A DNA stretch of 64,000 nucleotides from Octopus vulgaris (taxonomy: Eukaryota). The notes below the pieces were generated by a model. That model saw only the letters and a list, made by a program, of their open reading frames with translations, was not told where the DNA came from and did not search any database. Of the stretch, positions 5,812-60,180 are shown piece by piece. Each line of letters opens with the position of its first letter. Position 1 is the stretch's first letter. Both the position numbers and the translations under genes were made by a program. The DNA lies in NCBI GenBank assembly GCA_951406725.2, contig OX597814.1, positions 105,090,001 through 105,154,000 on the forward strand. The letters run 5' to 3'.

Positions 5812-5858
5812 AAAGCTGTCCGACGAACAGGAACGTGAAACTCCGAGTAACAGGTTTT
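5812..5858 (+). ncRNA. Minimal type I hammerhead-like motif (U4C core) in a ~85-bp island between (TA)n tracts
   Basis: AAAGCTGT|CCGACGA|AC-AGGAAC-GT|GAAAC-TCCGA-GTA|ACAGGTTT: stem I 7/8 bp, stem III ACTC-C-GAGT, GUA triplet. Confidence 0.55.
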
Positions 5859-5925
5859 GTTGAATTTCTGCTGCTTTTAAATAAAGTATATATATATATA
5901 TATATATATATATATATATATATAT

Positions 5926-6225
5926 AGGCGTAGGAGTGGCTGTGTGGTAAGTAGCTTGCTTACCAACCACATGGTTCCGGGTTCAGTCCCACTGCGTAGC
6001 ACCTTGGGCAAGTGTCTTCTACTATAGCCTCGGCCCGATCAAAGCCTTTTGAGTGGATTTGGTAGACGGAAACTGAAAGAAGTCCGACGTATATATGTAT
6101 GTGTGTGTATATGTTTGTGTGTCTGTGTTTGTCCCCCCCCCCGACATCGCTTGACAAACGATGCTGGTGTGTTTACGTCCCTACAACTTAGCCGTTCGGC
6201 AAAAGAGACCGATAGAATAAGTCTA
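5926..6225 (+). mobile_element. tRNA-derived SINE (ACCTTGGGCAAGTG core family)
   Basis: GTGGCTGTGTGGTAAG box A and GGTTCAGTCCC box B. Homologous copies at ~27636-28090, 33056-33445 and 51625-51770, with minus-strand partials near 10430, 17915, 42870 and 50405. Confidence 0.8.
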
Positions 6226-6584
6226 CTTTAAGTTTCATAGGGTCTTTAATATTAGTTTTTTCTGTGAGATTTGCACCATTCTACACTCATTCATATACTT
6301 CTCTCTTTTATATATATGTCTCTGTGTGTGTGTATGTGTATTGTGTGTATGTGTATATATATATATATATATATATATATATATACATATATATATATAT
6401 ATATATATATATATATATATATATATATATATACATATATATATGTGGATACGCACACACAGGAGCAAATACCTTTGAACTTATTTACTTATTTTAAAGC
6501 ATGGTTGAGTCCATAAATAGAATTTGACTACACCTCCATTTAGAGCACAGTTTAAGCTATCTTTTCGTGGAAGAAGGTTTATCC

Positions 6585-6921
6585 AGATAAAAATTGCTGC
6601 AGCTCGGCTGGGATGTTACCCCACTCTTCATATTCACCAGATATTGCTCCTTCGGATTTCCACTTATTCAGGTCTCTGCAGAATAGTCTTAATGGTGAAA
6701 ATTTGAATTCCTTGGATGTCGTAAAATGATACCTTGATGAATTCTTTGCCATGAAACCACCTCAATGCTGGGAAGCGGATGTTTTCATGTTAAAGGTAAG
6801 ATGGAGACGCATTGTGCGACAAAATGGTTCATATGTGGTTGATTAAAAATGTAATGGCAAGTATTTATTGACCTTTTTCTCTCCTTTCAAAATCGGCACG
6901 AACTTTCTGGACAACTCAATA
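6585..6921 (+). mobile_element. Mariner (Tc1/mariner) transposase 3' fragment with right TIR
   Basis: Translates to ..YSPDIAPSDFHLFRSLQNSL..RWRRIVRQNGSYVVD*, the mariner YSPDLAPSD motif. Ends CACGAACTTTCTGGACAACTCAA followed by TA. Confidence 0.85.
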
Positions 6922-7289
6922 TATATATATAGTGGCTGCTTTCTCGTACGCGAGAAAGAATCATTGAAATGAGACTTTGATAATGCAATGTGAGGCCCTT
7001 ATTTTATAGCAAAATGCACAGTTCTGCTGGCTGCCAGAAGGATCAAGTGCCACCGTATAAAGTCTTTAGACTTGTCTTCTTAATCTTCCAGCTGAACGGC
7101 ACATCTTTCCACAGGTTATATATGTTCTGCTGCCAACAACAGCTGTGTCATAATTTACAAGGGGTTGATTCTCGAGGCCGCTTTGATGGCTGACCAGGCT
7201 TAAGTATTGTTTCCTACAAATCACACATCCAATAGTCCTTTGTATAATATGTAGAGAATATGCAGGAATGAAAATGCAAGAATGAAAAC

Positions 7290-56971: not shown

Positions 56972-57794
56972 AACAACAAACAAGATAAGGACAAATATCC
57001 GTCAAATGTAAATAATATAAATGAAGTTGATTTCTTCCACTGGTAAAAAGTGGGAAGTGATATTTACTATGAAGCTCAACGAAGACCTCCCCACCTCACA
57101 AAAGTTATCTTCGGTTTTTGAACATTTTTCTCCCATTGATGGCTGCCGTGTAGCTTTTGAGCAAGTTCGCTCGGCTTCATTCGTGGAGAATATAAACAAA
57201 CACTCAAAGTGAGATTTGATATAATTAATGTAAATGATGGAAGAATATTGTATTAATTAAGAATATTTCCGTAGTGAGGAGAACAAAATCATTAAATGAA
57301 TGACATATTTAATTTGATCTTGACTGTATGACAGATATTATCTTCAGGAGATTTACAGAGTGGTGGTGGTGGTGGTGGTGGTGGGAATGGAAGAGAAGGG
57401 AGAGAGAAGAGGAGAGAGAGAAAGAGAAACACACTGAAGGAGAAAGAGTGGAGTACAAAGACAGAAAGAGAGAATGGGAAGGAGCTACTTTTGAAAATAC
57501 ATTCAAAATTTTCGCTAATTTGCTCAGCAGTACATCCTTCAGTTGGCGATTGGTGAATAAAGAACTTATTTCTGATGTCGAATCTGTTGCGCAGAATTGC
57601 ATCGCTGCGACGTCAAGAAATGATGTTGAAATATTTTCAGGAACGGTTCAATAGAAGCATTTCTCAAACAGATACAGGACCAAATGCGTTTCAGCGACAC
57701 CAGTCGACTGTCTGTCAGACAATAATATTATCCATTGTTTCCTTCCTTTAAATTAGAAGAACTTTTCATGACATTTAGTTTCTATATCTAAATA

Positions 57795-58122
57795 GTGAGG
57801 GCACGTGGCTTAGTGGTTAGGGCATTCGGCTCATGATCGTAAGGTTGTGAGTTCGATTCCCGGCGACGCGTTGTGTCCTTGAGCAAGACACTTTATTTCA
57901 CGTTGCTCCAGTCCACTCAGCTGGCAAAAATGAGTTGTACTTGTATTTCAAAGGGTCAGCCTTGTCACTCTCTGTGTCACGCTGATTATCCCCGAGAACT
58001 ACGTTAAGGGTACACGTGTCTGTGGAATGCTCAGCCATTTGCACGTTAATTTCACGAGCAAGCTGTTCCGTTGATCGTATCAGCTGGGACCCTCGTCGTC
58101 GTAACCGGCGGAGTCTTTTTTT
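57795..58122 (+). mobile_element. tRNA-derived SINE with TSD
   Basis: GTGGCTTAGTGG box A, GAGTTCGATTCCC box B, T-tail; 12-bp TSD TATATCTAAATA (57783-57794, 58123-58134). Confidence 0.9.
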
Positions 58123-59301
58123 TATATCTAAATATGTTCAGCAAACAACGAATCGACCATGTTGCCTATGACATCGCTAAAAACAGGACTTCCCCATTAG
58201 TAAAAAAAAAAAAACCGGGTTAGGTATCTAAATACAACTATTACGAATGGACTGGGTATTGGGATAAGATTATCATAATAATGATGATGATGATGATGAT
58301 GATGATAATAATAATAATAATAATAATAATAATAATAATAATAATAATAATAATAATAATAAGAAGAAGAAGAAGAAGAAGAAGAAGAAGAAGAAGAAGA
58401 AGAAGAAGAAGAAGTAAGGGATGTGACGTAGTGTGTTCAGAAGTTACGAGTTAGAAATATTCAGTCAGTCTTGCGCATTAGGCATAAGGAGATTAACACC
58501 ATTTCTACAATTTTGTTGATACAAGAATAGGATTTAATCCCCGTGTTTGAGTAACCACAAATAAAGGGAGCACTCGTCTTCCAGTTCAATTTTGGAAGAG
58601 GGCTCGAAAATGTGTCCTAAATATTTCCTGGTCTGTAAGGTGGTTCACGATGCATTTCTCTTCCGTTCAACAACAACGTATTTAAAAACGGAAACAAATG
58701 GATTTGTGAAGCGTGTCGGATGATAAAAAATGTATCAGGCCTCGCATCCGTAATGTCCCTCCTTGTTATAAACATGCCATCGCACATCTGAGAATGTAAA
58801 CGTATTATGTGCCTGCAAAAGTTTCGATTGGGTGGAACTGAGTGAAACTGTTGGTAGATATTTATAACTGAAGCTAAAGATCTTGGACTCTAGTTTATTT
58901 CGTTTGTTCCCTTTGATAAATACAGACATACATACATACATACATACATACATACATACATACATACATATATATATATATAATAACGAAGGACTTGTAC
59001 GCAATATAAAAACAAAAAGGGGAAAGCACAACTTTTCCTAATTGTGACTGAAGGTGTTGAGTAGCACCTATATTGTTAGAAATATTATCATATTCTGACA
59101 AGCGAGATAACAGTCCCTGTTATCTCTTTTGTCAGTATATGATAATGTGCTTTCTTGCAGCTGAGAGGGTTTTAGGGTTTTAACTCTTATTTCTATCAGC
59201 ACACGTTCTGCACCATCGGTCCCAATGAGTGACAATTGTAATTTTCCTTTTGGGCTTTATATTGCGCAAAGCTGCCTTCGTTTTATATATATATATATAT
59301 A

Positions 59302-59962
59302 TATAATTAGAGTTCAGCTAACTGCTTCACCACATACCGAAATTAGAAGAAGGAGTTAAAAATTCCTTTTCTACTACTATAAGAATATACATGACGGTAA
59401 ACATACTTTTTAAATTTGAAATTATAAGTTACTCCATGATAGAATACTGCAGTTTTCTGCGGTATTGCTCGTAGCATACACGTGGGTATAGAGTTTGAAT
59501 AGTGTATTCACATTCGGCTCTGTAAAATTTGGAAGTGATGGTTGGATATCTGTTACATGATGACGCTCGATTGTGTGCATATTCAGCCCTTGCACTTTCA
59601 AATTTTATAAAAAACTGTAAATATTATACTGAAGAGAGAAGTAAGTAAAATTTAAATTAACTTTAATCTCGAAATGCGTATATAGTTAATCCTGGTCGTG
59701 TTGATTCAATGTTTTTCTCCTTGCCTTCGTAAAAAAGTATGTTTACCGTCATGGAGATTCTTATAGTAGTAGAAAAGGAATTTTTAACTCCTTTTTCTAA
59801 ATTCGGTATGTGGTGAAACAGTTAGCTGAAACCTAATTATAATTATGTAGATAATTTTACATATAAAGGCTATTTTAATGTACCGATCTACTTGGTAAAA
59901 TTATTAATCAATTGATTAATTTATTAATTTAATTAATAAATTTTATCCTTCTGTTATTAATT
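59302..59962 (+). mobile_element. (TA)n-flanked Penelope pLTR/retrozyme-like element with inverted 5' copy and hammerhead
   Basis: IR 59302-59411 / 59731-59841; hammerhead 59624-59685; TTTCTA-stem-ACTTGGT motif 59794-59896. Confidence 0.65.
59624..59685 (+). ncRNA. Type I hammerhead-like motif (CUGAAGA core)
   Basis: TTATA|CTGAAGA|GAGA...TCTC|GAAAT-GC-GTA|TATAG. Confidence 0.65.
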
Positions 59963-60089
59963 TATATATATATATATATATGGAACTTTGGAAAACTGTT
60001 TACAACCTATATCTGCCTCTAATGGAACTATCTCCAATATTTCATGAGTATAACCTCACCCACTAAGATATCTAGAGAACTCAAATGTA

Positions 60090-60180
60090 TTTTAGCTGAT
60101 GAGTACGGGACACTTTTATCTGCTGCAATTTTTGCAACTTGTAATAAAGCCTGTCTTTGTATGAAACAATTGTACTAAAA
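60090..60180 (+). ncRNA. Type I hammerhead ribozyme, canonical core, extended stem II
   Basis: TTTTAG|CTGATGA|GTACGGGACA..TGCAA-TTT-TTGCA..TGTCTTTGTAT|GAAAC-AATT-GTA|CTAAAA; diverged homolog of 55007-55097. Confidence 0.78.

Follow-up and report, generated by a model that had tools for sequence, protein, structure and literature searches.

A 64,000-nucleotide stretch of the Octopus vulgaris genome (contig OX597814.1, positions 105,090,001 to 105,154,000 of the forward strand; hereafter the window) was analyzed for hammerhead ribozyme motifs, ten of which had been proposed in an earlier note. According to the interpretation that we consider highly probable, the minimal type I hammerheads of the window belong either to the 3' ends of Penelope-like elements (PLEs) of three clades or to three circularly permuted repeats of about 500 bp that lack an open reading frame (ORF) and likely borrow PLE enzymes; cutting is predicted for dimers only. 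Judged by sequence, nine of the ten proposed sites are type I minimal hammerheads or decayed copies of such. These nine were found at the places given, whereas the site at 16813 retains a 3' half only and a further motif, at 42148-42199 on the minus strand, had been overlooked. When the motifs were written out and their copies compared, the PLE-type minimal type I architecture, the palindromic stem III and the occurrence of several families beside (TA)n were all borne out. Stem III was palindromic in the window motifs and self-complementary in each of the eight families, A to H. At the family level the canonical core CUGANGA...GAAA-UH occurs in B, E, F, H and part of G. Compared with their own families, only the window copies at 55007, 60090 and 42148 have core and stems intact.

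Each motif host was searched against the source genome (2.8 Gb in 227 contigs), and the best 20-30 copies per family were examined. First-look candidates, which are not copy numbers, amounted to 1462 for family A, 1220 for B, 1280 for C, 4083 for D, 2512 for E, 499 for F, 556 for G and 1490 for H. From this comparison seven sites (5812, 22947, 41774, 52481, 56926, 60090 and 55007) are identified as 5'-truncated 3' ends of protein-coding PLEs, mostly in (TA)n, because longer copies run upstream, on the same strand, into PLE ORFs. The assignment is direct for six sites and made by similarity for 55007, because its element is 83.5% identical to that at 60090. The 3' ends of families A-E are fixed and lie 30-250 nt beyond the cleavage site, their 5' ends are ragged, and the hammerhead always lies in sense orientation to the PLE frame, near the 3' end. 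(TA)n was found at the 3' end of 19 of 30 copies in family A, 28 of 30 in B, 27 of 30 in C and 29 of 30 in D, and within 260 nt of 10 of 30 family E copies. An inverted arm was present upstream in 19, 9, 1, 2 and 10 of 30 copies of A, B, C, D and E, respectively.

Protein motifs would place families A and B in the Hydra clade, C and D in Neptune and E in Penelope/Poseidon. The translations of A and B (loci L388 and L151) contain a CxCX5C linker as well as CxxC and CxH in the endonuclease (EN), without CCHH. Family A is represented by an 84-bp 3' end between two (TA)n runs (5804..5887, plus strand; hammerhead 5816-5853) with the core CCGACGA (U4C), and one stem II pair is broken in the window copy; longer copies (L388, L394, L399) have an endonuclease frame 1158-1189 nt upstream. 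The family B element (59983..60211, plus strand), likewise between (TA)n runs, appears to be the 3' end of a young PLE, with the best 40 copies 99% identical, and contains an intact hammerhead at 60090-60180. In one copy (L151) a 580-aa frame, comprising the end of the reverse transcriptase (RT) region and the EN, ends 1318 nt upstream of the core. Subfamily B2 (54861..55129, minus strand) is, by its similarity to family B, a probable PLE 3' end with a tail of about 130 nt and an intact hammerhead at 55007-55097. A repeat related to family B, 67% identical to the 55007 element, lies at 16813..16965 and was given no strand. Its first 70 and last 68 bases match opposite strands in other genomic copies, so that it is interpreted as an inversion junction consisting of an inverted tail and the hammerhead 3' half at 16909-16930. 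It was rejected as a whole hammerhead, since the halves lie on opposite strands elsewhere and only the 3' half is left.

Upstream of family C (22850..23064, minus strand; hammerhead 22947-22984), RT motifs, a CX4CxxC linker and a CCHH GIY-YIG EN were recovered (L143/L355, L347, L348), with both RT and EN in L143/L355. The 22947 motif has the core CUGUUGA (A6U), a 5-bp stem I and, in the window copy, one broken stem II pair; reading it as a C3U core was dropped, as related copies show CUGUNGA with a full stem I. Family D, the 3' end of a second Neptune-type PLE with the core CCGACGA, is present twice, at 41702..41912 on the plus strand (motif 41775-41807, G5 lost) and at 52368..52588 on the minus strand (motif 52482-52515, G12 lost and stem III broken). 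Its EN frame lies 1340 nt upstream in L416, and a CX2-5CxxC linker precedes the CCHH C-terminal EN, which is 55-57% identical to that of family C. For families A and D the upstream part fetched reaches the EN only.

Family E (56660..57023, plus strand; hammerhead 56927-56970) leads upstream into an RT with DKG and a CCHH GIY-YIG EN without a linker finger (L208, L194; RT and EN together in L208 and L247). The window copy consists of the B-box-like part of a tRNA-like head, (AAT)n and the hammerhead, whose 10.1-11.1 pair is broken. The full tRNA-like segment, with A- and B-box-like parts recognized by eye about 41 nt apart, opens the family E 3' UTR (L185-L214). It was not called as a tRNA by ARAGORN in any of nine loci, nor did Rfam give a tRNA match in four. 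Among ORF-selected copies the head directly followed the stop codon in 26 of 30, and a hammerhead lay within 700 nt in 18 of 30. The head occurs in 923 exact 26-mer copies genome-wide, most of them starting at the head. We considered family E as a stand-alone SINE and dropped this, as a PLE stop codon lies just upstream in L005 and L185-L214.

The earlier note had taken all short hosts for non-autonomous retrozyme families mobilised by PLEs like those whose relics lie at 53-54.7 kb. This held for 25398 and 59624, to which the overlooked 42148 is added, but not for the seven PLE 3' ends, and as a general explanation we regard it as very improbable. It is true in kind for families F, G and H, and it gains something from family E: when 30 copies were picked by the head alone, 4 extended toward the ORF and 26 ended within about 10 nt upstream of the head, so that most E copies may be products of a short SINE-like transcript. 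A short Pol III-type transcript would explain these stops; so would fold-back at a small hairpin located there. However, families A-E continue upstream into PLE frames, which contradicts the explanation for A-D, and in A-E a second copy on the same strand is seldom present within 1.5 kb (0-3 of 30). The relics themselves are real, with two GIY-YIG endonuclease remnants, one Hydra-type at 53030..53206 on the plus strand (E=2.6e-8 to the family A frame) and one weakly Neptune-like at 54289..54465 on the minus strand (E=0.011 against the frame of family C; 6e-10 in tblastx against locus L476). Both are old, the best other genomic match of the plus-strand relic having 51-62% amino-acid identity; nothing links them to the hammerhead families of the window, and their role as mobilisers was not borne out.

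Families F, G and H are, by their sequence organization, ORF-less circularly permuted units of about 490-560 bp of retrozyme type. Family G (25251..25858, minus strand; hammerhead 25398-25475) has a unit of 492 bp, and the window copy comprises 1.24 units with a 116-bp terminal repeat and a broken innermost stem I pair. The family F element (59290..59972, plus strand) consists of a 560-bp unit at 59413-59972 and an inverted 5' arm at 59290-59411; its hammerhead (59623-59686) has a broken stem III palindrome in the window copy. Of the 546-bp tandem unit of family H, 434 bp are present at 42123..42714 on the minus strand together with an inverted 5' arm at 42554-42714, and the motif at 42148-42199 is intact. 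The longest stop-free stretches are 64 aa (F), 107 aa (G) and 79 aa (H), GC content is 0.29-0.35, and tblastn gave no match to the PLE frames recovered from this genome. None of the three leads into a PLE body in the loci examined; in L438 the PLE frame that lies upstream of F is part of an inserted copy of family C. In 19 of 19 other copies of G and 15 of 19 of F, the end of the unit continues into its start. Arrays of family H comprise 11 and 12 units spaced 545-546 bp apart; a 26-mer of the family has 223 exact copies, and copies 99-100% identical occur. The end-to-start joint of H is present in contigs, and tandem DNA gives the same joint. Two or more successive units in head-to-tail order, all with a hammerhead of their own, were found in 13 of 20 loci of H, 1 of 20 of G and none of 20 of F; this two-unit hallmark of non-LTR (long terminal repeat) retrozymes is thus seen in H, mostly not in F and G, and not in A-E. 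Circular folding of the three units gave z values of -4.6, -5.4 and -6.9 against shuffles, compared with +1.1 and -2.7 for two PLE 3' UTR controls. (TA)n lay within 260 nt in 18 (F), 19 (G) and 20 (H) of 20 copies, and an inverted arm upstream in 3, 8 and 10 of 20, respectively. The hammerheads of all three are of the minimal PLE type and not of the canonical form with loop 1-loop 2 contacts.

Two further observations concern such repeats. A short AT-rich motif is common to F (59890-59969), G (25630-25678) and the H unit (F-H E=2e-6, F-G E=5e-6) and is perhaps a common recognition signal, or composition only. Locus L253:2300-4900 (also L361), which comes from a randomly chosen genome stretch, contains a 359-bp tandem array with a near-canonical type I hammerhead per unit, five units forward and two inverted, between TA-rich runs; on these sequence features it is a fourth retrozyme-type family.

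The window has 38.6% GC and 107 tandem-repeat rows, mostly microsatellites. A descriptor tolerating one change at core position 3, 4 or 6 was run on it and on 25 block-wise dinucleotide shuffles. At a score of at least 11 there were 5 matches against 0.04 (maximum 1) per shuffle, and at a score of at least 8 there were 8 against 0.40. The descriptor overlooked the motifs at 5816, 41775, 52482 and 59623, all with point changes relative to their own families. Two of the 8 matches, at 11427 and 38397, lie within LINE RT frames and are probably chance, the match at 6676 was rejected as chance, and a core-like stretch at 14871 was rejected for having neither a valid cleavage triplet nor a relative among the loci compared. 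An excess over shuffles was thus obtained with the descriptor, whereas the Rfam scan of the window returned 116 matches at E<=1, none of them a hammerhead, and the motif density proved ordinary for the genome. Folded as single strands, 8 of 9 motifs were unremarkable, and since only 25398 beat its shuffles, folding energy is no test for these motifs.

For comparison, we scanned 40 stretches of 10 kb each, picked evenly at round coordinates from 25 contigs, with 4 shuffles as control. They yielded 20 matches at a score of at least 11 (0-1 in the shuffles), 7 of which stem from one array, and 27 at a score of at least 8 (0-4 in the shuffles), which corresponds to 3.2-4.3 motifs per 64 kb. The motif density is not peculiar to the window, which is not special and no hotspot. 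Extrapolated from the sampled stretches, hammerhead motifs would number roughly 10^5 genome-wide. A single pattern restricted to ACGU-type stem III already gave 56,905 genome matches against 8,072 in the reversed control, and the sampled stretches contained many further families with other stem III palindromes.

Copies within a family also show compensatory changes in stem I. In family G the pair was G-C in 11, A-U in 7 and mismatched in 1 of the copies parsed (19 of 20), and in family F it was U-A in 12, C-G in 3 and U-G in 2 (17 of 20 parsed). Among contigs from four sequencing runs of uncertain kind, which show no molecule ends, one of family H (run X8; L484:1702 and 1753) has C-G in place of U-A in stem I, together with U4C. 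Taken with the other evidence, these pairs bear on the idea that AT-rich repeats match the hammerhead by chance and that transposition has multiplied such matches. The lack of an Rfam match, the ordinary folding energies and two to three window descriptor matches that are probably chance would suit that idea. It is nevertheless refuted, with practically no probability left to it, by the compensatory pairs, by the constant sense position near the 3' end in A-E, by eight window families and many sampled ones with differing stems and palindromes, and by the excess over both the reversed control and the shuffles.

How would PLE-end hammerheads of this build operate? Stem III cannot fold within one motif (0 kcal/mol), and between two copies it reaches -1.7 to -9.8 kcal/mol. 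A dimer model in which stem III pairs between two copies has been described for PLE hammerheads (PMC4209133; statements on this source and on PMC8557442, PMC7229834, PMC6765202, PMC3088659, PMC7151607 and preprint 10.64898/2026.07.22.740005 refer to excerpts of them). We propose that the PLE protein would nick (TA)n and prime reverse transcription downstream of the hammerhead; reverse transcription would usually end early or switch template, leaving hammerhead-bearing stubs. In a transcript of tandem units, two stem III palindromes would pair and the RNA would be cut after H17 to unit length, and in F, G and H the unit RNA would circularise and give cDNA longer than one unit. The templates would be uncut or re-ligated RNA, because every genomic copy spans the cleavage site; this agrees with the in vitro finding for an Anolis PLE that cleavage is dispensable for insertion (PMC11167929). 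Cleavage in that system needed protein (PMC11167929). Solo copies such as those in the window would be silent, because there is one hammerhead per RNA and most are decayed.

The core variants bear directly on whether cutting takes place. With positions 6 and 7 left free, the family C pattern matched 20,209 genome copies (control 0), of which 19,142 have U6 (A6U, CUGUNGA) and 473 A6. A motif-independent set was collected with the downstream flank alone from 382 loci that had not been picked for C and was counted by hand; it gave 25 copies, 3 of them truncated within the motif and 22 usable. Position 6 was U in 21 of the 22 and A in none, position 7 was A, C, G or U in 7, 5, 4 and 6 copies, position 17 was A, U, C or G in 18, 3, 1 and 0, and the other core positions showed scattered single-copy changes only. 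Judged from these alignments, A6U is fixed in family C across several subfamilies, with the hammerhead's free positions varying. U4C characterizes families A, D and part of G, with 9,193 pattern copies for D.

It is conceivable, although clearly less probable than the interpretation preferred here, that the elements are as described and that many of the hammerheads do not cut but are retained to serve the PLE protein as a folded or pairing signal, with A6U and U4C tolerated for that reason. Families with either variant are successful, each copy in the genome runs across the cleavage site, catalytic mutants were without effect on insertion in vitro (PMC11167929), and another change at position 6, A6C, makes the hammerhead less active in Mg2+, by orders of magnitude (PMC7151607). 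The pattern of variation in family C speaks for cutting instead: it varies at position 7, which is free in hammerheads, and avoids G at position 17, and the latter points to a cleavage-site rule. Somewhat more tentatively still, the family C lineage might possess a working hammerhead with a new core, CUGUNGA, rescued by the dimer, the PLE protein or another metal ion, and the genome might hold a whole series leading from autonomous PLEs via a tRNA-headed SINE-like transcript born in a PLE 3' UTR to young circular retrozymes whose insertions bear the marks of PLEs.

Several points weigh against PLE ends and PLE-borne retrozymes with dimer-cutting hammerheads, the interpretation that we prefer. 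Cleavage, RNA ends and circles are predicted; for the Anolis PLE, insertion did without cleavage in vitro and the site showed no read ends (PMC11167929), and in the excerpted preprint 8 of 9 Xenopus retrozyme dimers were uncleaved (10.64898/2026.07.22.740005). Families A and D (U4C) and C (A6U) deviate at positions reported to reduce activity (PMC3088659, PMC7151607). The 4-nt stem III of C, D and E would form a weak dimer helix (-1.7 kcal/mol), and each compensatory change in stem I could be a single event. The putative clades come from motifs read by eye: in Pfam, RVT_1 was above cut-off in 2 of 7 PLE stretches, weak RVT_1 and GIY-YIG matches were obtained in 2 and nothing in 3, and the 580-aa family B frame had no match. 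An intact copy with pseudo-LTRs (pLTRs) on both sides of the ORF was not present among the fetched loci, which were mostly 3 kb long and picked by 3' ends, and the loci examined yielded no PLE that could be assigned as mobiliser to F, G or H.

Apart from the hammerhead elements, the window contains two intronless CAP (cysteine-rich secretory protein) frames, at 3649-4302 and 28916-29863, with 70% DNA identity. Two intronless four-EF-hand frames (8754-9563 and 15905-16468), which we take to resemble calcineurin B, lie within a local duplication at about 8.0-10.8 kb and 14.6-18.2 kb. LINE fragments are located at 10686-13534, 18219-19219, 36030-37209, 37879-39791 and 61387-63175, with RVT_1 in three scanned frames. 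Fold-back repeats at 20659-20933, 46555-46718, 47938-48108 and 49628-50395 gave no hammerhead match and may be inverted PLE-type insertions or MITEs.

The system as such is known, since metazoan PLE hammerheads, including that of an Octopus Hydra element, have been described; the window adds members, and our finding therefore extends the catalogue and opens no new class. For two questions raised in the literature, the role of the hammerhead in PLEs and the agent that mobilises animal retrozymes, young material for testing is now at hand in the near-identical Hydra and Neptune ends and in the 99-100% identical tandem retrozyme H with its insertion marks of PLE type. Core variants occurring naturally in very many copies are offered as well. 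Added interest lies in the scale, with about 10^5 motifs invisible to Rfam and family C invisible to any CUGANGA descriptor, in the young H family, in the tRNA-like head and in the A6U lineage. An octopus repeat paper (PMC13282606) has no ribozyme, hammerhead or retrozyme in its text and 190 PLE families in its supplement. The A6U or CUGUNGA core was not found in the literature searched, the coverage of which excluded one key paper, several supplements and Repbase/Dfam, which might hold A6U or these families.

With the pseudo-LTR hammerheads of metazoan PLEs (PMC4209133) the window motifs share type I topology, a short stem I, a palindromic 15.2-16.2 or loop 3 and, in C, D and E, an additional nucleotide that separates position 9 from 10.1. 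Both also have in common that a genome holds many families, that most motifs stand alone and come from truncated PLEs, and that opposite-strand pairs occur. They differ in number, which is of the order of 10^5 here compared with about 2,000-9,000 in that source, in the very long stem II of B and G, in the cores A6U and U4C and in that U3-A8 was not seen. Compared with the PLE clades of PMC8557442, the combination of CxCX5C, CxxC and CxH without CCHH agrees with Hydra (A, B), a CX2-5CxxC linker with CCHH agrees with Neptune (C, D), and DKG without a linker agrees with Penelope/Poseidon (E); (TA)n targeting, inverted 5' arms and an optional 3' tail are likewise shared. Unlike those elements, A, B and D have 3' UTRs of 1.2-1.3 kb, the tail is about 100-130 nt instead of 30-40 nt, and family E has a tRNA-like head in its 3' UTR. 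The excerpted supplement lists Hydra-1_Obim of Octopus with a 3' hammerhead and Hydra hammerheads of the same build; the window families are other than Hydra-1_Obim, because its hammerhead row differs from all window motifs.

The core variants A6C and U4C, natural and with lowered activity (PMC3088659, PMC7151607), resemble those described here in that position 6 or 4 is changed and the remaining core is kept. The variants known from these excerpts are rare phage or viroid cases, whereas A6U is fixed across several subfamilies in about 19,000 copies and its function is putative. In the case of F, G and H, the inverted arms and (TA)n targeting are direct insertion-mark support for mobilisation by PLEs; the circles here are predicted. 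Schistosome alpha elements are presumably of tRNA-like origin. They have a promoter followed by a hammerhead (PMC6765202), and the short family E copies resemble them in that A-/B-box-like parts precede a hammerhead; in family E, however, the head is located within a protein-coding PLE, in its 3' UTR. With animal non-LTR retrozymes (PMC7229834; preprint 10.64898/2026.07.22.740005), families F, G and H share the lack of an ORF, a GC content of 29-35%, units that follow one another head to tail and all contain a type I hammerhead, a strong self-pairing predicted for the circles, many monomers and the presence of PLEs in the same genome. Their hammerheads are minimal and not canonical, and F and G mostly remain under two units; the preprint accepts both canonical and minimal hammerheads in retrozymes and describes retrozymes as PLE derivatives. 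The units of 490-560 bp exceed the range of about 170-400 nt in PMC7229834 and fall within the 51-972 bp of the preprint.

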